A stretch of 64,000 bases of DNA from Candidatus Cloacimonadales bacterium (lineage in GTDB: Bacteria; Cloacimonadota; Cloacimonadia; Cloacimonadales; JAFGVF01), in NCBI GenBank assembly GCA_963677495.2, contig CAXXOU010000002.1, positions 256,001 through 320,000 of the forward strand. The letters run 5' to 3'. Of this stretch, positions 1 to 15,854 are shown piece after piece. Each line of letters starts with the position of its first letter. Position 1 is the stretch's first letter. The notes under the pieces are model-generated. The model searched no databases. It had not been told where the DNA came from and worked only from the letters and a program-made list of their open reading frames with translations. Made by a program: the position numbers and the translations under genes.

Positions 1-2
1 GC

Positions 3-86
3 AACGATGCGAAGAGTCCATTTGTTCAGGAAAGAAAACGAGGTTCAGGGAATGGTGGTCCGCAGGGTCCTCCACCACAGAATTAA
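3..86 (+). CDS. 3' end of an upstream gene, probably the MacA-like periplasmic adaptor of the ABC exporter (partial)
   Basis: Frame 3 reads NDAKSPFVQERKRGSGNGGPQGPPPQN* (TAA 84-86). An SPF...G/P-rich tail is typical of efflux adaptor C-termini, and it lies directly before the MacB-like ATPase. Confidence 0.5.
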   Translation, partial: NDAKSPFVQERKRGSGNGGPQGPPPQN

Positions 87-96
87 GGAGAGTAGC

Positions 97-858
97 ATGA
101 ATATCAAAGAAATAATAAGAATAGAGAATATGCATAAGCACTATACTTTAGGTGACGAAACTATCAAAGCTTTGAATGGAATAAGCCTGTCAGTGCCGGA
201 AGGTGATTTTGTTGCAATCATGGGTTCAAGTGGCTCAGGTAAATCAACAATGTTGAACATACTTGGATGCTTGGATTTACCAACAAGTGGAGAGTATTTT
301 CTCGATGGCATAAATGTGAAATCATTGAGAAAAAACCGTTTGGCTGAAATCAGAAATCTGAAACTGGGATTTGTTTTTCAATCATATAACCTGTTGCCTA
401 AAACATCAGCTATAGACAATGTACAACTACCATTACTTTATAATCCAAAGATAAGCAAAGTAGAGCGTAGAGAACGAGCAGAGCAAGCATTAATAGCTGT
501 AGGCTTGAAGGATAGGATGAAGCATCTGTCAAACCAAATGTCAGGCGGTCAACAACAAAGAGTAGCAATTGCCCGTTCTATTGTAAATAATCCGATTGTT
601 ATATTCGCAGATGAAGCAACCGGTAATTTAGATACAAAGACATCATACGAGATTATGGCTCTCTTTCAGGAACTGAATGAAAATGGTATGACTATCTGCT
701 TTGTTACACATGAACCGGATATTGCCTCTTTTACTAAGCGGAATGTTGTCTTTAGAGATGGTGTGATTATCGAGGACAATGTCAATTATGAAATGCGTAA
801 TGTGATGGATGTTCTCGCTGACTATAACAAAGTAACTAACGAATATCAGGTGGGATAA
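97..858 (+). CDS. ABC transporter ATP-binding protein (MacB/LolD family)
   Basis: Walker A GSSGSGKST, signature MSGGQQQRVAIAR, Walker B IFADE, H-loop VTHE. Start placed at ATG 97 after AAGGAG. Confidence 0.95.
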   Translation: MNIKEIIRIENMHKHYTLGDETIKALNGISLSVPEGDFVAIMGSSGSGKSTMLNILGCLDLPTSGEYFLDGINVKSLRKNRLAEIRNLKLGFVFQSYNLLPKTSAIDNVQLPLLYNPKISKVERRERAEQALIAVGLKDRMKHLSNQMSGGQQQRVAIARSIVNNPIVIFADEATGNLDTKTSYEIMALFQELNENGMTICFVTHEPDIASFTKRNVVFRDGVIIEDNVNYEMRNVMDVLADYNKVTNEYQVG

Positions 859-859
859 A

Positions 860-2080
860 ATGAAACTAACAAATATAATTATGATAGCGATTACAGCTAT
901 TAAACGGAACAAGACACGTTCCATCCTGACAATCTTAGGTATTGTAATTGGTGTTGCAGCTGTTATTGCAATGTTAGCAATAGGGTATGGCTCTAATCAA
1001 AACATCAAAGATACAATATCTTCCATGGGTACTAACCTAATAAATGTTATGCCTGCACATCAGGTTGTAGGTGGTGTGAAGCAAAGCAGAACCAGTTCAC
1101 CGACCTTAACTGAAGAGGATGTTGCATATCTTCAAGAACATAGTGAGTTGATTGATGCAGTATCTCCTGAACTTGATGGTCAGGGACAGATAGTGTATGG
1201 CTCGAACAATTGGCCTACTTCAATATATAGTGGTGATGAGGACTACTATTTTATAAAGAAGTTTACAGTTGAATCAGGGCGAATGTACACAGCAAAGGAG
1301 ATAAAGAGTGCTTCAAAAGTATGCCTTATTGGGCAGACAATAGTAGAGAATGTCTTTGCAGAGAATGAAGACCCTATAGGAAAAGTTATTCGCTTCAACA
1401 ATATCCCATTCAAGGTCATTGGTATATTAGCCGAAAAGGGTGACAACACTTTCGGGCAAGATCAAGATGATATGGTATTAGCTCCATACACTACAGTCAT
1501 GAAGCGATTATTCAGACAAACACATCTTAGAGCAATTGTGATTTCAGCAAAATCAGAAGATGCCATAGAGGAAACAAGTGCTGAGATTACAACTTTACTT
1601 AGAAAGTCACATAAACTTAAAAGTGATGAAGATGATGATTTTGAGATAAGAACTCAAGAAGAGCTGATCAGTAACTTCACCTCAATATCAGAGATGATGC
1701 TTGTGTTATTAGGTTCTATTGCTGCAATCTCATTGGTTGTTGGTGGCATAGGTATTATGAATGTGATGTATATGTCTGTTACTGAGAGAACACGTGAAAT
1801 CGGACTTAGAATGGCGATTGGTGGTAAAAGTAAGTTCATCTTGCAACAATTTCTTTGCGAAGCGATGCTCTTAAGTATATTGGGTGGAATTGTAGGTGTA
1901 CTCGTTGGAATAGTGGCCTCAAACATAGTGGAGAAAGTATTGGGATGGCCAATATTGATTACATCTAACTCAATAATCATTTCATTTCTCTTCTGCACTT
2001 TTATTGGAATATTCTTTGGTTGGTATCCTGCAAGAAAAGCATCTGCATTAAATCCTATTGACGCTTTAAGACATGAGTAG
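860..2080 (+). CDS. ABC transporter permease (MacB/FtsX family)
   Basis: RSILTILGIVIGVAAVIAM, GGIGIMNVMYMSVTERTREIGLRMAIG, PARKASALNPIDALRHE. Confidence 0.95.
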   Translation: MKLTNIIMIAITAIKRNKTRSILTILGIVIGVAAVIAMLAIGYGSNQNIKDTISSMGTNLINVMPAHQVVGGVKQSRTSSPTLTEEDVAYLQEHSELIDAVSPELDGQGQIVYGSNNWPTSIYSGDEDYYFIKKFTVESGRMYTAKEIKSASKVCLIGQTIVENVFAENEDPIGKVIRFNNIPFKVIGILAEKGDNTFGQDQDDMVLAPYTTVMKRLFRQTHLRAIVISAKSEDAIEETSAEITTLLRKSHKLKSDEDDDFEIRTQEELISNFTSISEMMLVLLGSIAAISLVVGGIGIMNVMYMSVTERTREIGLRMAIGGKSKFILQQFLCEAMLLSILGGIVGVLVGIVASNIVEKVLGWPILITSNSIIISFLFCTFIGIFFGWYPARKASALNPIDALRHE

Positions 2081-2099
2081 ATAGTTTAAACTTGAAGAG

Positions 2100-3185
2100 G
2101 TGATTATGATAAATAGAGAGAAAGTCTGGCGGGTATTACCCCATATAATCGGAGTATTGCTCATAGCGATTATGCCAATGTTTTTGTTCGATGAGTCCGA
2201 TGAGAGAATTAGAACCTGGACATACAGATATTATTATCAACTATTCTTTTTGATTATAGCATTTTATGGTAATTATCTGTTCATTGTACCCCAATTCTTT
2301 CTCAAGAACAAACGGATCAGATTCTTCCTAATCTTGATAATGTTTGCCGTCTCTTTGACATGGATCTCTCAATCAATATCGAAGAAACTCGATATTTATA
2401 AACCACCTCGCCGTGAGATGAACACAACCAATGAAGTTAATGAAATAACTGAAGAGAAACGTATCTTGGGTTTACATCCAAGAATTATGGACGATTTACT
2501 ATTCCTAGTCTTAGTTTTTGGTTTTAGTACCGGAATGAGCATTCTTCAAAAGCAGAGGAAAGATAAGGAAAAACAGCAGAAGCTTGAGAAGGCTAATGTT
2601 GAGAATGAGCTCGCTTTTTTAAAGAATCAAATTAATCCTCATTTCTTTTTTAACTCTCTCAACAATATCTATGCTTTAATAGATATAGATGGCACCAAAG
2701 CCCAGCAGGGTATTGAGAAACTTTCAGGGCTCATGCGTTATCTTATCTATGAGTCTAACAGCCCCTATGTGCCCGTCAGCAAGGAGTTTGAATTTACACG
2801 AAACTATATCGAGTTAATGCGTCAGAGATTGACTAAGAAGGTAAAGCTTGATGTTGATATTAGCGATGAAAACAGTGGTGCAAACATACCTCCCTTACTC
2901 TTCATATCCTTCATTGAAAATGCTTTTAAACACGGGATTAGTTATAGAAGTGATTCGTTCATTGAGATAAAACTACACACGACTGAGGATACTGTTCATT
3001 TCAGTTGTAAAAACAGTATCCCGGCAGCTCAAGATAAGCAAACCAATAATCAGGGTGGGGTAGGAATTACCAATATCAGGAAAAGGCTCAATATTCTTTA
3101 TGGTAATGAGGAGCGATTGATTATTAACGAGGACAAGAATGAATACTTTGTAACTATGAAGATACCCTATGAGGTGAAATCATGA
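2100..3185 (+). CDS. LytS/YehU-type membrane sensor histidine kinase
   Basis: N-terminal TM helices, ELAFLKNQINPHFFFNSLNNIY H-box, FIENAFKHG, GGVGITNIRKRL. Confidence 0.93.
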   Translation: MIMINREKVWRVLPHIIGVLLIAIMPMFLFDESDERIRTWTYRYYYQLFFLIIAFYGNYLFIVPQFFLKNKRIRFFLILIMFAVSLTWISQSISKKLDIYKPPRREMNTTNEVNEITEEKRILGLHPRIMDDLLFLVLVFGFSTGMSILQKQRKDKEKQQKLEKANVENELAFLKNQINPHFFFNSLNNIYALIDIDGTKAQQGIEKLSGLMRYLIYESNSPYVPVSKEFEFTRNYIELMRQRLTKKVKLDVDISDENSGANIPPLLFISFIENAFKHGISYRSDSFIEIKLHTTEDTVHFSCKNSIPAAQDKQTNNQGGVGITNIRKRLNILYGNEERLIINEDKNEYFVTMKIPYEVKS

Positions 3186-3915
3186 ATAAAATAACCTGTA
3201 TTGCCATTGATGATGAGCCGTTAGCTCTTGGATTGATAGCCGGACATATAAAGAAAACCCCCTTTCTTGAGCTGAAGGGTGAATTTGATAATCCTATTGA
3301 TGCAATGGAATTCTTAGAAGAAAATCCGGTACAACTTCTGTTTATGGATATTCAGATGCCGGATTTGACTGGGATTAAATTCGCTAAAGTACTTGATCGA
3401 AAGTACAAAGTTATCTTTACAACTGCTTATGAAAAGTATGCTCTGGATGGGTTCAAAGTCGAAGCTCTTGATTACCTCCTCAAGCCGATTAGCTATGAAG
3501 TTTTCTTGAAATCAGCCAATCGGGCAAAACGCTATTTCGATGAGCAAAGTGATAGTAATGAAAGTAACTCTGAAATACCCTTAAAACTTGATAAAGAATT
3601 CCTATTCGTTAAGTCTGACTTCCAAATCAGACGCTTTGAATACAAAGATATCCTCTATTTTGAGGGATTGAAGGACTATATTAAGCTCTATGTGAAATCC
3701 TCAAAGGAAGCAGTCGTTTTCCATGCAACTCTGAAGGCTGTTGAAGCCAAACTACCAACCGACAGATTCATGCGTACTCATAAATCTTATATTGTGAACC
3801 TCCAGAATGTAAGACTTATCGAAAAATATAGAATCATATTTGGCACTAAATATATCCGGTAAGCGATAAATATAAAGCGACTTTCGATAATTTTGTTAAG
3901 ACCCAATTCCTGTAA
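3182..3915 (+). CDS. LytTR-family response regulator with an apparent 1-nt frameshift near 3856 (the ORF as read stops at 3862)
   Basis: Receiver motifs IAIDDEP, MDIQMP, FTTAY, DYLLKP and LytTR motif FMRTHKSYIVN. Adding one C at 3856-3857 gives the usual end YIPVSDKYKATFDNFVKTQFL* (TAA 3913-3915). Confidence 0.88.
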
Positions 3916-3930
3916 CCTATTGTTTAGAAC

Positions 3931-4067
3931 CGGTTAAATCCATATTCTTTGGATTGCATTTACTATGTAAATGCAACAGCCACATGACGCTGAAAGCATT
4001 CACTCAACTAAAATGAGCCACTAAACTAGGCACCGCAAGGCAAACCGACATAGTCGGTTAACTCCAT
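3931..4067 (-). repeat. Dispersed copy of the ~125-bp RAYT-associated double-hairpin repeat
   Basis: Reverse complement reads ATGGAGTTAACCGACTATGTCGGTTTG...GTTGCATTTACATAGTAAATGCAATCCAAAGAATATGGATTTAACCG, matching the units at 8819-9195. Confidence 0.9.
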
Positions 4068-4072
4068 GAACA

Positions 4073-4099
4073 AAAGAGACACTAACCGTAGTCAGTGTC
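4073..4099 (-). terminator. Intrinsic terminator of the YdeI-family gene
   Basis: Minus strand GACACTGAC-TACG-GTTAGTGTC followed by TCTTTT, with a cUACGg tetraloop. Confidence 0.6.
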
Positions 4100-4116
4100 C
4101 TAATCTTGAATACAGA

Positions 4117-4692
4117 TTATCGAAAATTTTTGGGTAATACTTTCTCCTTCAAGTTTTCAACAATCTTCCGTATCCTCTTCGTTTTAGTTGCAGGGCGCTT
4201 AGCCATAGCTATCCAAGCCAACAGACCTCTCTTCAATGACTTTGATAGGGAATTATAATAGGTCTTTGAACCGGGGTGGGATTTAAAAGCTTGTTCGAGT
4301 TCATCCGGTATCTGCAATGCTTCTACTGAATCAAGTATTGTCCAGGAACCGTTCTCTTTAGCAAGCTCAATTACGTTTAATCCTGCATTTGTCATTAGAT
4401 TTGCTTTAACAAGTGTTTGGACCTTATTCTTATTCACTTTAGACCAAGTGCTGTTAGGCTTGCGTTTAGAATAATATTGCATATATCTGTCTTTATCTAT
4501 TGATTTCTTTGTACTATCAATCCAGCCAAAGCAAAGGGCTTCATCTACAGCATCACTCCAAGTGATTGTTGGGGTTGCTGAACTTTGCTTGTAAACTACA
4601 ATCCATATAGCATCTTTTGTCTGATGGTTTTGTTTTAACCATTCTCGCCATTCTTTCCGATTCTTAGGGCAGATCTTTTCCGTTGTTTTCAT
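4117..4692 (-). CDS. YdeI/OmpD-associated family protein
   Basis: EWREWLKQNH, AVDEALCFGWIDS, RKPNSTWSKVNK, AKRPATKTKRI. Confidence 0.9.
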   Translation of the reverse strand: MKTTEKICPKNRKEWREWLKQNHQTKDAIWIVVYKQSSATPTITWSDAVDEALCFGWIDSTKKSIDKDRYMQYYSKRKPNSTWSKVNKNKVQTLVKANLMTNAGLNVIELAKENGSWTILDSVEALQIPDELEQAFKSHPGSKTYYNSLSKSLKRGLLAWIAMAKRPATKTKRIRKIVENLKEKVLPKNFR

Positions 4693-4756
4693 GTTTTGAT
4701 ATTGATAGGCAGTTTGTATATGTCAACATAATAGTGCTCAATCCAGCTTCAATGAG

Positions 4757-4853
4757 ATATCTAACCACGGATGATCCACGGGTAAACCAGGCCTAAACGA
4801 CGGGAGCTGTGGTTAACCCGCGGTTTACCTGTGGTCAACCCGTGGTTAGATAT
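4757..4853. repeat. Palindromic element built of 11-bp units
   Basis: Perfect 14-bp terminal IR ATATCTAACCACGG / CCGTGGTTAGATAT enclosing four forward and four reverse degenerate 11-mers. Confidence 0.75.
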
Positions 4854-5019
4854 GCTTTTAGTATGCCAGTTGAAGGCAACGAATTTATATATATCTTGCA
4901 GAAAAGTTAATATATCTTTAATTATGTGCAGGATATTTTTACCGATGTTGTCATAGAATGAGTAAGAATAATCGGAGCCGATAAACAAACAACACACACT
5001 AACTATAAGCGAGAGAATT

Positions 5020-5856
5020 ATGTCAGATAATCTAACATTTAAACGTAAGGAACGTAAATACATAATCTTAGAAAATACTTTCGAACAGGTTGTGGATTCA
5101 ATTAAAGAGAAGCTTCCAATTCATATATTTGATGGGGTTAATCCTTATACAGAACTAGAGACTATTTATCTTGATACTAAAGAACTTATGCTATTTAAGG
5201 AGTACTTGAATGGGCGCAGCTTCAGATTCAAAATCAGACTCAGACGATATGGCCATGACGGTGTCTTTGATAATAAATATCTGGTAGAACTGAAAGTAAA
5301 GCATAATGGCATTTCAAGAAAAAAACGCTTTATATTACCGGCGGAATGCTTAGATGATTTCCTGAAAGGTGAGAAGATAAAACCTGCTATCAAAGAAGCA
5401 AACAAAGGCTTTGTGGGAGCACAAAAGACCTATAAGTTGATTGCAATACTTATTGAAATGAACCAGTTTGTACCTGTTATGAAAACAAGTTATGAGAGAA
5501 TTGCATTTCAAAAGAAATCTAAAAAGAACAGACTTACAATAGATCGGAATATTACTCATACGAGACTTATAGGTAAACCTTGCGAAGAGAAATTAGACAC
5601 TTATGTCTTAGAATCAAAGGTAATCGGTAAGACACCAAAATGGTATAAGAAGATGGTGAACAGACTATCTCTTCTAAAGCAAAACCGTTTCTCCAAGTTT
5701 GCGACCGGGATGAACTCACTTTATTTCCCTCAAAGAGGAAAGTATAATTTCTCAAATGACGACTTCGAGATAGATGAGATGCCGGAAGTGATAAAAGAAT
5801 CATTTGACCTTATGAAATCATATCTTAAACTTAGTGACGATATTGAAGTGAGGTAA
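5020..5856 (+). CDS. VTC-domain (polyphosphate polymerase-like, CYTH/TTM fold) protein
   Basis: RKERKY, TIYLDT, KIRLRRY, VELKVK, KKR, YERIAF, RLTIDRNI, VLESK and FSKF occur in the order expected for the VTC domain. Confidence 0.85.
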   Translation: MSDNLTFKRKERKYIILENTFEQVVDSIKEKLPIHIFDGVNPYTELETIYLDTKELMLFKEYLNGRSFRFKIRLRRYGHDGVFDNKYLVELKVKHNGISRKKRFILPAECLDDFLKGEKIKPAIKEANKGFVGAQKTYKLIAILIEMNQFVPVMKTSYERIAFQKKSKKNRLTIDRNITHTRLIGKPCEEKLDTYVLESKVIGKTPKWYKKMVNRLSLLKQNRFSKFATGMNSLYFPQRGKYNFSNDDFEIDEMPEVIKESFDLMKSYLKLSDDIEVR

Positions 5857-5861
5857 CAAAT

Positions 5862-6404
5862 ATGCAGGAACTATTTGAGGTAATTCAGAACAGTGCTAGC
5901 GGAGGAATAAGTCAATCCCCACTACAGATTCTTCTCAATCTTACAATGGCAATGATACTTGGTCTTATCTATGCTTATGTCTATCGACTGACCTATGTGT
6001 ATAGCGGAAGTTTTGCTAAAGAAAAAGATAAGAAAGTACTTAAGTTGGAGATGAAAAGTATACAATACACTCTTCTTCTTCTTTCAATTGGTGGTGCCTT
6101 TATCTGGATAGTTGTTGCAGATAACTTGGTGAGAGCTTTTGGTCTTGCCGGTGCACTCAGCTTGATTAGGTTCCGTACGGTTGTGAAAGATCCAATGAAT
6201 ACGATTAAAGTGTTCTATGCAATTATCATCGGTATGTCCTGTGGATTGAGCCAGTACTATACAGCAATTATTGGTACTGCTTTCATTTGTTTTGTCTTAA
6301 CTGTAATATATTTCATCAAAAACCGAGAGAAAGAACAAAAAGCACTAAAGAAAAGCCTTGAGACACAAGATGTTGAGGAAGTAGTTGATGAGAGTAAAGA
6401 ATAG
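5862..6404 (+). CDS. DUF4956-family membrane protein
   Basis: Several TM helices with NLVRAFGLAGALSLIRFRTVVKDP, the DUF4956 signature. This family is a usual neighbour of bacterial VTC genes. Confidence 0.82.
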   Translation: MQELFEVIQNSASGGISQSPLQILLNLTMAMILGLIYAYVYRLTYVYSGSFAKEKDKKVLKLEMKSIQYTLLLLSIGGAFIWIVVADNLVRAFGLAGALSLIRFRTVVKDPMNTIKVFYAIIIGMSCGLSQYYTAIIGTAFICFVLTVIYFIKNREKEQKALKKSLETQDVEEVVDESKE

Positions 6405-7706
6405 ACTATATCTGATAGTACTTATCCTCTACATAAGCTTTTCTTTAAGAGCACAGACACTTGATGATTTTATGTCTGAGATGCTCTTGAAGAATAGTGA
6501 TTACCAGGAAGCAGTATATAGATTACATCAGGAGAAAGCTTCGCATGATATTGATTCATCATCGGAGTTTGGGGAGCTGAGTCTTAGTTACAGTAAGAAT
6601 GATAACGAGATTGAGCGTAGTATTACTAAATCATCTGTCGAAGATACAGAGATTAATGAAGAGGATGAACGCTGAAGGTTGAGTATACTAAGCAATTCTT
6701 TCCTAAAGACTTTGATGCTACTGAAGATGCCATTAGTTATAAGATCAACAAATTCCGCTATCAACAGAGCTTGCTAAATGTCCGTTTGAAGAGTATGAAT
6801 GATATACTTGAGGATATGATCGAATGGTATGAGATAAGCGAGAAACTTACTTTATATAAAGAAGAGCTAGGCATGTTGCATGCCGAAAATGTTATCCTTG
6901 ATGAATATGAGAAGCAGAACATTGTAAGCCCCAATAAGCTACTAAAGAATCTGAAAGCGATAGATAAACTTGAAGATAGAGTATACTACTCACAGAGTGA
7001 AATTAAGAAGTACGAAGCGAATTATGGCGAAAGATTAGAAGAGTTTAGGCAAGTTTTTAATCAATACATGCTTACTCAACCGCAAGCCGATACTTTGAGT
7101 TTTACTAGTTACAGTATCGATTTACTTAATAGTGTTGAGAGGAAGATGGAGAGAATTAGTAACTCAATCAAGCTTCATACTCTTTTCGCATTCTTACCGG
7201 AAGTGAATCTGTCAGTCTCATATAATCAGCGAGATATTGATCAGGATTGGGTGACCACAGAAGATGGAGATGTTGATGAACTTACCCGTGTCCAATCAGA
7301 AGTCTATCCTGAAGCAGAACTGGAACTATCAATACCTTTGAATCTGTTTTCCAATATTCGAGGTAAGAATAGAATGCTGAAATCGTTTAAACAAGAATTG
7401 AGGTATCGAAAAAATGAGCTTCAACTTGATTTAAACGAGTTTGTTATAGAACTAAAAACTGCATTATTAAGTAACAGCACCTCAGTTACCCGTAAAGAGC
7501 GAATCCACGAACTTTCGCAAGAACAGCTAAATGGTGTTAGAGCTATGTTTAATGAGAACCCGGAACTTCTTGGTGCTGCTCCGGAAGATAGACTCCAGGA
7601 GGAGATTATTTCAGCTTCTAAAGCAGAAATCAATTATAATGTTAGTAGAATGAATCTCTTTAAGACAATATATATCATGAACCGATTTGATGAGGGGAGA
7701 GAATGA
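6388..7706 (+). CDS. Exported TolC-like outer-membrane efflux protein, split by a 1-nt frameshift at ~6674
   Basis: Signal peptide MRVKNRLYLIVLILYISFSLRA. Helical repeats with beta-like segments (ELSLSYS; LPEVNLSVSYN...LELSIPLNLF). ORFs 6385-6675 and 6771-7706 join if one G is restored (CGC TG[G] AAG GTT GAG). Directly upstream of an MFP gene. Confidence 0.6.
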
Positions 7707-8809
7707 AGAAGCAAAAGATAAAAGTTATATTTGTACTTACACTTTTGGTGATAACAGGAACAATTATTGTATCATATTTCATAGATTCCAATTCTCAGAA
7801 GCTACCGGCAGTTGTTAGAAGCAATAAAGTGTTTGTGAGTACAGAAGTTTCCGGCACGATTGCTAACTATTTTGTTGCCTCGATGCAGGAAGTTAAGAAA
7901 GGACAAGCAATTGCAAAGCTTGAGAATCCACGACTTACAGAAAAGCTCAAAGCTCTCAGAAGTGAGTATGATAATTATAATAAGCTTGTTAAGTCAGCAG
8001 AAGATGGAGATATTTTAAAACTTGAGCTTTTCAAGATAGAGAAGGATATTCTTGAAACTTTTGAAGATATTCAGAAAGCTGAGTATAAACTAAACAAGCT
8101 TTATCAAGAGCTTGATATTCAAACCCTTGATAACCAAAGTGCAATCAAAAAATACAATTCCATTAAGAAACTCTATGAAGAAGGTAAAATCTCCCAAACT
8201 GAATATGACCTGAAAGCTAAAGAGTATCTTTCCATTATAAACAAATACGCCAACTGGCAAGCTGAATCGTCAATGATAACAAAAGAGCTTGAAGCTAGTA
8301 AAACTGTTTTGAAGATGCAGAAAGCACAACGAGACATAATCAATTCAAATACGGCTATACTTGCTTCTAAGAACTTAATAGAGTTAGACAAGATTAGAGT
8401 GGACATTGCTGATCTAGAGCATGATATTGAGAATCTGACTATTCTATCACCCTTAGATGGAGTGGTAACAGGTTTACGCAATCGCCCGGGTGAACGAGTA
8501 AAGAATGGTGATGTAATTGCCGAAATCTCTGATATAAGCGATGTCTGGCTTACTGCTTATGGGAGTTCATACTCCAATCGTGAACTTAAAGAAGGCAACA
8601 AAGTTACCATCTACTCTAACAATAAAGAGAAGATTGCCGGTGTTGTATTCTCAATCTCACCTGTTATGGAGAAAGTGAAATCATTGAGTGCAACTTCTGA
8701 AACGGTTAATACTTATACTAAGATTAAGATTGGCTTTATTGACCACAATGAAGCTATGAAGCACTTGACTCCGGGAGAGAGGTTGTTTGTTAGGATAAGC
8801 TTGGATTAA
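7703..8809 (+). CDS. HlyD/EmrA-type membrane fusion (periplasmic adaptor) protein
   Basis: N-terminal TM anchor, lipoyl halves VSTEVSGTI...VKKGQAIAKLEN and TILSPLDGVV...PGERVKNGDVIAEI, with a long coiled-coil hairpin between them. Confidence 0.88.
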   Translation: MKKQKIKVIFVLTLLVITGTIIVSYFIDSNSQKLPAVVRSNKVFVSTEVSGTIANYFVASMQEVKKGQAIAKLENPRLTEKLKALRSEYDNYNKLVKSAEDGDILKLELFKIEKDILETFEDIQKAEYKLNKLYQELDIQTLDNQSAIKKYNSIKKLYEEGKISQTEYDLKAKEYLSIINKYANWQAESSMITKELEASKTVLKMQKAQRDIINSNTAILASKNLIELDKIRVDIADLEHDIENLTILSPLDGVVTGLRNRPGERVKNGDVIAEISDISDVWLTAYGSSYSNRELKEGNKVTIYSNNKEKIAGVVFSISPVMEKVKSLSATSETVNTYTKIKIGFIDHNEAMKHLTPGERLFVRISLD

Positions 8810-8810
8810 A

Positions 8811-9240
8811 TATGGATTTATGGAATTAACCGACTATGTCGGTTTGTCGTGTCACATTTCGTTGAGTAGCTGATAATAGTTTAGTTATGCTTTTTTAATG
8901 TCGCGTGGCAGTTGCATCTACACAGTATATGCAGTCCAAAGGAATATGGAATTAACCGACTATGTCGGTTTGTCGTGTCACATTTCGTTGAGTAGCTGAT
9001 AATAGTTTAGTTATGCTTTTTTAATGTCGCGTGGCAGTTGCATCTACACAGTATATGCAGTCCAAAGGAATATGGAATTAACCGACTGTGTCGGTTTGTC
9101 ATGTGGCACTTAGTTTAGTGGCTCATTTTTGTTTAGTTGATGCTCTCAAAGTCGCGTGGTAGTTGCATCTACACAGTAAATGCAGTCCAAAGGAATATGG
9201 AATTAACCGACTGTGTCGGTTTTTCATGTGGTACTTAGTT
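8811..9240 (+). repeat. Tandem array of REPIN/BIME-like units upstream of RAYT (units start 8819, 8945, 9071; partial 9196)
   Basis: Units are 126, 126 and 125 bp. Each starts TATGGAATTAACCGAC-NNN-GTCGGTT and ends GTTGCAT(C/T)TACA-AGTA-ATGCAGTCCAAAGGAA. Units 1 and 2 are identical. Confidence 0.95.
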
Positions 9241-9271
9241 AATTTGTAATAAGTTCAAGTAAGGATGTAAT

Positions 9272-9808
9272 ATGTATAAAGAGTATAAGCATAATCCCCC
9301 GCACCTTTTTCTTGCAGACACAAAATACTTTATCACAACTTCAACCTTAGGAAGGTATAAATATCTTGGAACTAAAGAAGCCAAAGATGCTATTTTGCAT
9401 TATCTCGTGAAAACAATCAACCACTTCAATTGGATATTAGAAGATTGGGTCATTTTAGATAATCATCTACACTTAATGATGACAGCTCCAGAGGACGCTA
9501 CTAATCTTCCAGAATTAATGCATAACATCACTCGATTTTCTGCCAATTGGCTTTCTAAACATGGTGTCAAAAAGATAGAAAGACAATATTTCCATAACTA
9601 TTGGGATACCTGTATAACATACGAAAGGTCATATTATTGTCGTCTAAACTATATTTGGAATAACCCTGTAAAACATGGATATGTTGAATACCCGGAAGAT
9701 TGGGAGTATGGGAGTTATTTCTACAGAATAAGAGAACTTGAAAACGACACTCATAAGATAATGAACAACTATCCCATTGACAGAATTCATGTTGAAGATG
9801 ACTTTTAA
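9272..9808 (+). mobile_element. REP-associated tyrosine transposase (RAYT/TnpA-REP, HUH Y1 family)
   Basis: YFIT, WVILDNHLHL (HUH), YWDTCI, NYIWNNPVKHGYVEYPEDWEYGSY (catalytic Tyr and NPVK motif). Flanked by palindromic repeats on both sides. Confidence 0.88.
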
Positions 9809-9809
9809 A

Positions 9810-9936
9810 TATGGAATTAACCGACTGCGTCGGTTTGTCTTGTCACACATAGTTTAGTGGCATATTTTTATTTAGTTGATGCTCTCAAAGTCGCGTGGCA
9901 GTTGCATTTACATAGTATATGCAGTCCAAAGGAATA
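9810..9936 (+). repeat. REPIN-like unit downstream of RAYT
   Basis: TATGGAATTAACCGACTGCGTCGGTTTG...GTTGCATTTACATAGTATATGCAGTCCAAAGGAATA. Confidence 0.95.
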
Positions 9937-15681: not shown

Positions 15682-15854
15682 TATGGAGTTAACCGACTGT
15701 GTCGGTTTGTCTTGTCACACTTAGTTTCGTGGTTTATCCTAGCTGATATATGCTATTTTACATCGCTTGGCAGTTGCATTTACATAGTATATGCAGTCCA
15801 GATGAATATGGAATTAACCGACTGTGTCGGTTTGTCTTGTCACACTTAGTTTAG
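15682..15854 (+). repeat. Dispersed RAYT-associated repeat (one full 125-bp unit plus a partial unit from 15807)
   Basis: TATGGAGTTAACCGACTGTGTCGGTTTG...TGCAGTCCA...TATGGAATTAACCGACTGTGTCGGTTTG. Confidence 0.92.

Follow-up and report, generated by a model that had tools for sequence, protein, structure and literature searches.

A conserved four-gene cassette of Cloacimonadota as a candidate polyphosphate synthesis and export system without a conventional pump

Can a polyphosphate polymerase and a small membrane protein take the place of the pump in a tripartite envelope duct? The question is raised by a cassette of four + strand open reading frames (ORFs) at positions 5020-8809 of a 64,000-nt stretch of DNA from Candidatus Cloacimonadales bacterium (assembly GCA_963677495.2, contig CAXXOU010000002.1, positions 256,001 to 320,000), referred to below as the window. 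In order, the ORFs encode a VTC-domain protein, a DUF4956 membrane protein, a TolC-like channel and a membrane-fusion protein (adaptor) (Table 1). Our answer, to which we attach a probability of about one half, is that the VTC and DUF4956 proteins stand in the pump's place beside an EmrA-like adaptor and a TolC-like channel, and that the cassette makes polyphosphate (polyP) and would thread it out of the cell. An earlier note, made from the sequence alone, had described four tightly coupled genes. The 5-nt gap between the VTC and DUF4956 genes (5857-5861), the 17-nt overlap of the DUF4956 and channel genes (6388-6404, the channel gene starting at ATG 6388) and the ATGA overlap of the channel and adaptor genes (7703-7706) are as it described them, but it had missed that the channel gene is frameshifted in the deposited sequence.

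Identity of the four proteins

The 278-aa protein matched the Pfam model VTC (PF09359) over all 235 profile positions (136.5 bits, with a cut-off of 23; E = 1.4e-39), matched no other Pfam family, and is encoded by the single VTC gene of the genome. When a profile of five cassette VTC proteins was compared with solved structures, the catalytic domain of Vtc4 was the best match (3g3q, E = 1.1e-13), with Vtc2 (3.7e-9) and Vtc3 (6.7e-6) behind it, and at E <= 0.01 there was nothing beyond these three, a CYTH triphosphatase included. The part of Liu et al. (bioRxiv 10.1101/2023.01.27.525886) that we draw on gives K200, R264, R266, K281, R361, K458, S457 and Y359 as the triphosphate ligands of Vtc4 and E426 as its Mn ligand, and places Ile or Leu at the position of K458 in the inactive Vtc2 and Vtc3. 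In HMMER alignments to 3g3q and 8i6v, residues K13, R73, R75, K92 and Y158 of the window protein pair with Vtc4 K200, R264, R266, K281 and Y359, and R160, E198, S225 and K226 with R361, E426, S457 and K458; the C-terminal stretch of the alignment is weakly scored, yet its FSKF motif is identical. All nine active-site residues were invariant in 77 sequences, six of them distant (25-29% identity), and the Lys that the inactive Vtc2 and Vtc3 have lost is thus present in the cassette proteins as K226. The Pfam score and the nine retained residues bear out the VTC-domain enzyme with tunnel motifs that had been proposed from the sequence. Pfam detected neither an SPX domain nor a fused membrane domain in the protein, and a search with the VTC alignment found no longer, fused relatives, which is a weak negative.

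The genome, which is 99.5% complete, had no match to PPK1 (PF02503) or PPK2 (PF03976), and it carries one Ppx/GppA gene (C4:923465-924310). No candidate for a polyP-forming enzyme was seen in it besides the VTC protein, which, judged from its sequence, is likely to polymerize polyP from nucleoside triphosphate (NTP).

The second protein exceeded the cut-off of the Pfam model DUF4956 (PF16316) narrowly, at 31.7 bits against 30.6; its orthologue from locus L012 reached 34.2 bits, and distant DUF4956 proteins neighbouring VTC genes 60-65 bits. The small DUF4956 membrane protein named in the earlier note therefore holds, just above the threshold, while MgtC (PF02308), at 25.4 bits against a cut-off of 31.4, is no more than a resemblance below the threshold. 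DUF4956 is a large family, with 3671 cluster representatives at E <= 1e-3. Judged by hydropathy and the positive-inside rule, the protein probably spans the membrane five times and has its C-terminus inside, and the AlphaFold2 (AF2) model, with a mean predicted confidence (pLDDT) of 90, is an all-helical bundle. Across 136 DUF4956 sequences R103 and G124 were invariant and A92, G97, R105, T106 and G128 nearly so; together they give helix 3 an RFRT motif, at its predicted cytoplasmic end, and helix 4 a GxxxG motif. DUF4956 is also the most conserved protein of the cassette, with 57-78% identity to its orthologues and helices 2-4 almost unchanged, compared with 31-48% for the adaptor and 25-37% for the channel. 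A search of the ESM Atlas returned DUF4956 clusters only (scores 0.83-0.88), and a wide structure search (VIA) gave generic helical bundles only (best Z 7.6). Eighteen longer DUF4956 matches have N-terminal extensions, which include a STAS domain in one case and a VTC domain in none. The STAS-bearing protein, P0199, has 370 aa, with the STAS domain at its N-terminus followed by a DUF4956/MgtC-like membrane domain.

The channel gene is broken as deposited. Over the 1319 nt of 6388-7706 the first frame stops at TGA 6673-6675, and a second frame stays open over 6669-7706. When aligned with the gene product, six intact orthologues, all with Trp at this point, place the break behind NEEDER and before (W)KVEYTKQFFPKDFD. 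In the contigs of all four public runs one extra G stands behind 6673, with no other difference over 6300-7000, and this G gives a Trp codon and an intact 439-aa frame. All four runs belong to a single study and a single sample, possibly the source of the assembly. Because all four run contigs carry the extra G, the break most likely reflects an error in the deposited assembly or a variant, and we rejected the reading of the gene as a pseudogene on the same ground; other genes of this assembly may have similar single-base errors.

Sequence comparison recognizes the channel weakly. The Pfam model OEP matched the C-terminal part of the window gene only (29 bits against a cut-off of 22), the intact L012 orthologue had no Pfam match at E <= 1e-4, and a profile of 13 channel orthologues had no match to PDB sequences at E <= 1. 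For structure prediction the intact L012 orthologue was folded, not the window gene; intact channel orthologues have 438-476 aa. Its AF2 model (pLDDT 86) consists of two repeats of a beta-hairpin and very long helices, and the top 40 Foldseek matches in the PDB (E <= 1e-3) all belong to the TolC family (TolC, ST50, SilC, CusC, OprM, VceC, CmeC), with a best E-value of 3.4e-13 and TM-scores of 0.45-0.6 over about 430-450 columns. By its modelled fold the third cassette protein is clearly a TolC-family channel, and its N-terminus resembles a signal peptide in sequence, as had been claimed for it.

The fourth protein scored above the Pfam cut-offs for HlyD_D23 (62.3 against 30) and HlyD_3 (51.5 against 22.2), whereas its NCBIfam matches all lay below their cut-offs and no equivalog was reached. 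Its closest solved relatives are EmrA (4tko, E = 2.6e-11, and 8zar), followed by LipC and MacA, in agreement with the HlyD-type adaptor of the earlier prediction. The sequence and the alignment of 13 orthologues reveal a hydrophobic N-terminal anchor without a lipobox Cys; a coiled-coil stretch of ~165 residues follows, and the protein ends after the beta-barrel, with no membrane-proximal domain apparent in the 13 aligned orthologues. EmrA-type adaptors serve partners with little periplasmic mass, an analogy which suggests that the adaptor would suit DUF4956 as a partner of this kind. All four family assignments made from the sequence were thereby recovered, those of the VTC protein, DUF4956 and the adaptor by Pfam and that of the channel by fold.

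Gene order, distribution and the missing pump

In a protein query, 4 of 60 relatives matched VTC, and none of 11 in the window's own family did so. The Pfam model VTC found matches in 26 of the 202 Cloacimonadota genomes of at least 80% completeness, distributed over 16 of 60 genera, and in one of six genomes of the small phylum to which genome G205 belongs. A weak VTC match in the same-genus genome G001 was dropped, having neither similarity to the cassette proteins nor synteny.

Where the VTC gene is present, it is nearly always accompanied by the other three. The order VTC-DUF4956-channel-adaptor was seen in all four relatives with a VTC match. Thirteen analyzable Cloacimonadota loci came from the scan of species genomes, twelve of them with all four genes and the last breaking off within the channel gene, where its contig ends (a 14th locus, consisting of a 38-residue match at a contig end, was not counted). 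Among the 23 genomes of the phylum with a strong VTC match (E <= 1e-25), all four genes were collinear in 19, one of these with the adaptor gene cut by the contig end; two more are cut earlier by contig ends, and two (G106 and G186) have another arrangement. A reciprocal search of metagenomes with the adaptor alignment gave 17 loci, in which the channel gene lies upstream in all 12 that have upstream DNA and all four genes are present in seven, without a counter-example. The loci behind this evidence are fairly close relatives, their adaptors being 40-56% identical. Within that range the four-gene linkage, whose conservation elsewhere the earlier note had proposed to check, is well upheld.

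The surroundings of the cassette were scanned by comparing ORFs of 90-100 aa or more, up to 6 kb from it, with Pfam; 13 loci contributed 95 ORFs to the scan, and 12 others contributed 55 of their 58 (one ORF of 100 aa and two near-duplicates from sister contigs were left out). An efflux component of the ATP-binding cassette (ABC), resistance-nodulation-division (RND) or major facilitator superfamily (MFS) type was found in none of these 25 related loci within 6 kb, which settles for this sample the question, posed earlier, whether homologous operons include a pump. The transport genes that do occur near cassettes encode an importer permease, PHO4 (twice), an H+-pyrophosphatase, a nucleobase permease and a solute-binding protein; there is also a MatE gene accompanied by MarR, on the opposite strand.

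The window itself requires a correction. It had been described as having no pump in or next to the operon, and the operon indeed contains none, but 2.9 kb upstream of the cassette are genes, overlooked at that time, for an ABC ATPase (1-858) and for a MacB-type permease (860-2080). The OEP (200 bits) and adaptor genes that belong to this ABC system precede it immediately outside the window, and none of the 25 related loci shares the system. The other five OEP genes of the genome all adjoin an adaptor and a pump (three AcrB-type, two ABC). The VTC cassette is the one channel-adaptor pair of six that has VTC and DUF4956 as its neighbours.

As a separate observation, the complete upstream unit (window 1-3862 together with G000:C2:253428-256086) comprises OEP, adaptor, ABC ATPase and MacB permease genes, followed by those of a LytS-type histidine kinase and a LytTR response regulator.

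Neighbouring genes and flanking repeats

A gene for a CotH kinase with a lamin-tail domain (LTD) lies within 6 kb of the cassette in 17 of the 25 loci (6 of 13 and 11 of 12), often directly adjacent to it, and most of the proteins carry a type IX secretion system (T9SS) sorting tail; some of the metagenome loci are close kin and not independent. These recurrent neighbours were absent from the earlier reading of the neighbourhood. In the window's own genome, the CotH-LTD-T9SS gene closest to the cassette is 17 kb upstream, beyond the edge of the window, and a second one is on another contig. At the genome level, CotH is found in 23 of 23 strong-VTC genomes against 81 of 202 overall, relatives again not being independent.

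Phosphate-related genes are also found near the cassette. Secreted calcineurin-like (Metallophos) phosphoesterases with dockerin or lamin-tail/T9SS domains are encoded near it at five loci (Table 1) and are possible extracellular polyphosphatases or phosphatases. One cassette is followed directly downstream by Ppx/GppA, PhoU_div and PHO4 genes (L015 6178-8825), and another has PhoU_div and PHO4 genes beside it (L050 267-2398).

The cassette of the window is embedded in repeats. A 126-bp unit stands in 3.3 tandem copies directly after it (8819-9229), followed by a gene for a transposase associated with repetitive extragenic palindromic (REP) sequences, a tyrosine transposase (9272-9808; NF047646, 92.7 bits). 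More copies lie just after the transposase gene (9810-9934), at 15682-15854 and, inverted, at 3947-4067, and the unit has ~24 matches genome-wide; its inverted copies bracket the cassette and a YdeI-like gene. Upstream of the VTC gene, an intergenic palindromic element of ~90-105 bp (4756-4860), with 44 BLAST matches over all four contigs, looks like a dispersed repeat of the REP type or of the miniature inverted-repeat transposable element (MITE) type. An Rfam scan of 4000-9900 gave no match at E <= 0.1, the 4756-4860 palindrome included, and scans for promoters and terminators returned counts at chance level.

Table 1. Genes of the cassette, with positions in the window, and secreted phosphoesterases near related cassettes, with positions in their loci.
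Feature	Position	Strand	Description
VTC-domain protein, 278 aa	5020..5856	+	Vtc4-like triphosphate-tunnel enzyme; predicted cytoplasmic polyphosphate polymerase
DUF4956 membrane protein, 180 aa	5862..6404	+	five predicted membrane helices
TolC-like outer-membrane factor gene with signal peptide	6388..7706	+	frame broken in window, G missing at 6673/6674
EmrA-like membrane-fusion (adaptor) protein, 368 aa	7703..8809	+	N-terminal membrane anchor, long coiled-coil hairpin
Secreted phosphoesterases	L019 2653-4883; L023 7748-9981; L038 6285-7415; L054 6077-7186; L051 11082-12737		between or beside CotH gene and cassette

Proposed mechanism, alternatives and known systems

The protein families and folds, the active site, the gene order, the missing pump and the neighbouring genes described above are observations, to which we add inferred steps of synthesis, docking, translocation and use. 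The cytoplasmic VTC protein would polymerize polyP from NTP and would dock on a DUF4956 oligomer acting as inner-membrane conduit, by analogy with the non-homologous Vtc1/3/4 channel of yeast. The membrane-anchored adaptor would couple this conduit to the outer-membrane channel, and polyP would cross the periplasm and the outer membrane, driven by its own polymerization and not by an ABC, RND or MFS motor. Outside, CotH kinases and phosphoesterases secreted by the T9SS would probably make use of it, as phosphoryl donor or matrix. The more ambitious claim, that this is a new envelope-spanning machine in which a VTC/DUF4956 synthase replaces the pump, polymerization drives export and polyP feeds CotH kinases outside the cell, where ATP is absent, is tentative, and we consider its odds to be clearly below even.

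A number of observations weigh against the export of polyP by the cassette. It is patchy in the phylum, as the counts of 26 in 202 genomes and none in 11 relatives of the same family illustrate. The DUF4956 model had no match in the PDB at E <= 1e-3 (Foldseek), and because the protein shares no homology with the channel subunits of yeast and matched no solved fold, its role as a channel is conjecture. Our searches found no VTC-DUF4956 fusion (itself weak evidence), and the literature matches listed include no biochemical activity of a bacterial VTC-domain protein. The bulk acidity of the cassette channels (pI 4.7-6.05) equals that of ordinary ones, with no sign of adaptation to a polyanion; for channels and adaptors alike, bulk pI and net charge proved not to be discriminating. 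Fifty-eight Cloacimonadota genomes have CotH without VTC; CotH therefore does not depend on the cassette. Finally, there are related sets without a duct. Genomes G186 (L037 5020-9022) and G106 (L040 1203-5610) combine a long DUF4956 (221-234 aa) with CotH and VTC, lack the adaptor and the channel, and have these sets inside polysaccharide loci with genes for GDP-mannose dehydratase, DegT, EpsG and sugar-transfer ATP-grasp proteins. The nearest relative outside Cloacimonadota, G205, is a diderm with 24 OEP matches, and it carries a TetR-VTC-DUF4956-X-CotH set twice, without duct genes. The module therefore does not need the duct everywhere, as two Cloacimonadota genomes and one other diderm have it without duct genes.

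Protein X of G205, encoded between DUF4956 and CotH (L024 8015-9106; L025 2748-3800), is conserved, has 350-363 aa and has no Pfam match. In the loci of Lachnospiraceae and Staphylococcaceae, VTC and DUF4956 stand by themselves or are joined by a Cthe_2159 protein.

The alternative that survives best, though we think it unlikely, is that what DUF4956 transports is something else, such as a small anion or a precursor for secreted enzymes, that the VTC protein is a motor or regulator hydrolyzing NTP or triphosphate, and that the duct exports this substrate. Triphosphate-tunnel enzymes include many hydrolases, and a STAS domain, as fused to one DUF4956 relative, is typical of anion transporters; the sub-threshold resemblance of DUF4956 to the MgtC membrane domain (25-34 bits) and the ordinary bulk charge of the channels point the same way. 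These arguments are opposed by the VTC protein itself, whose only Pfam family is VTC, whose only solved relatives at E <= 0.01 are Vtc4, Vtc2 and Vtc3, and which has kept the Lys separating active Vtc4 from its inactive paralogues, as well as by the Ppx, PhoU_div and PHO4 genes that adjoin the cassette in two lineages.

Slightly less probable still is that the adaptor and channel serve an unlinked inner-membrane pump and are co-transcribed with VTC and DUF4956 through a shared surface process, such as the supply of a factor for a CotH-modified matrix, in which case the VTC-DUF4956 product would reach only the periplasm or the surface of the inner membrane. VTC-DUF4956-CotH sets without adjacent adaptor and channel genes, present in monoderms and some diderms, speak for this arrangement, and so does the work on Streptococcus intermedius mutants, which, as far as the portion of that study available to us goes, ties the triad to exopolysaccharide and not to polyP export (PMC12345266). 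The order of the cassette genes is nevertheless fixed, with overlapping or abutting junctions, across proteins at 28-48% identity; every other channel-adaptor pair of the genome stands beside its own pump, and no pump recurs near the cassette. Very improbable is a decaying, recently acquired remnant that is functionless in this genome and includes a channel pseudogene: the frameshift in the window sequence, the absence of the cassette from the 11 same-family relatives of the protein query, the flanking repeats and REP-associated transposase gene and the lack of an adjacent CotH gene would fit it, but the missing G is present in the contigs of all four public runs, the other three genes are intact, and two CotH-LTD-T9SS genes lie elsewhere in the genome.

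Set against these alternatives, the synthesis and export of polyP by the cassette can be compared with systems already described. With the eukaryotic VTC complex (yeast Vtc4/Vtc3/Vtc1; 3g3q, 7ytj, 8i6v) the cassette shares the catalytic family and all triphosphate- and metal-binding residues and, as proposed here, a polymerase seated on a membrane conduit that would couple synthesis to translocation. It differs in that its VTC protein has neither an SPX nor a fused membrane domain, in that the partner DUF4956 is unrelated to the yeast transmembrane subunits, and in the proposed target, which would be the cell exterior across two membranes, whereas in yeast it is the lumen of the vacuole.

The VTC-DUF4956 pair and a secreted CotH kinase are also held in common with the accessory set of Gram-positive pel loci, as far as the consulted parts of the sources describe it. 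The accessory genes of these loci include, according to Whitfield et al. (2020, PMC7112168), DUF4956 and DUF4832 as well as cotH and a 'poly-phosphate polymerase', and the corresponding genes of S. intermedius are SIR_1592-1594 (2025, PMC12345266). There, mutants in the MgtC-like (DUF4956-type) and CotH genes had lower Pel and aggregation, the mechanism being left open in the portion at hand; VTC and CotH genes also appear in the C. perfringens locus in the part of Lepp et al. (2010, PMC2879425) consulted. In the Gram-positive sets DUF4956 is longer, about 220-230 aa with a C-terminal domain, and the genes belong to polysaccharide loci without an adaptor or outer-membrane channel, in contrast to the Cloacimonadota cassette, which has the short DUF4956 and adds both duct components.

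In common with EmrAB-TolC, MacAB-TolC and HlyBD-TolC, the cassette encodes an EmrA-like adaptor and a TolC-fold channel side by side, but MFS, ABC and RND components are absent from its loci (none in 25), which have VTC and DUF4956 instead. The idea of inner-membrane polymerization driving a polymer outward through a dedicated envelope path is shared with synthase-dependent exopolymer secretion, namely of cellulose (Bcs), alginate, poly-N-acetylglucosamine (PNAG) and Pel. Compared with these systems, the polymer proposed for the cassette would be inorganic, the enzyme has a triphosphate-tunnel fold and not that of a glycosyltransferase, and the path would be an adaptor-TolC duct in place of a porin with tetratricopeptide repeats (TPR). 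The cassette joins two known kinds of system, VTC-type coupled synthesis and translocation and tripartite ducts, and we found no paper describing it. In the literature searched, which excluded subscription-only papers and bioRxiv supplements, there was neither a link between TolC and a polyphosphate polymerase nor a polyP exporter from bacteria.

To our knowledge, it is not known how bacteria place polyphosphate on or outside the cell, nor how secreted kinases such as CotH obtain their phosphoryl donor. With the compact four-gene cassette, both questions can be put to a direct test in a heterologous host. Should the proposal be true, polymerization would be a third way to energize a tripartite envelope duct, besides ATP hydrolysis and proton flow.

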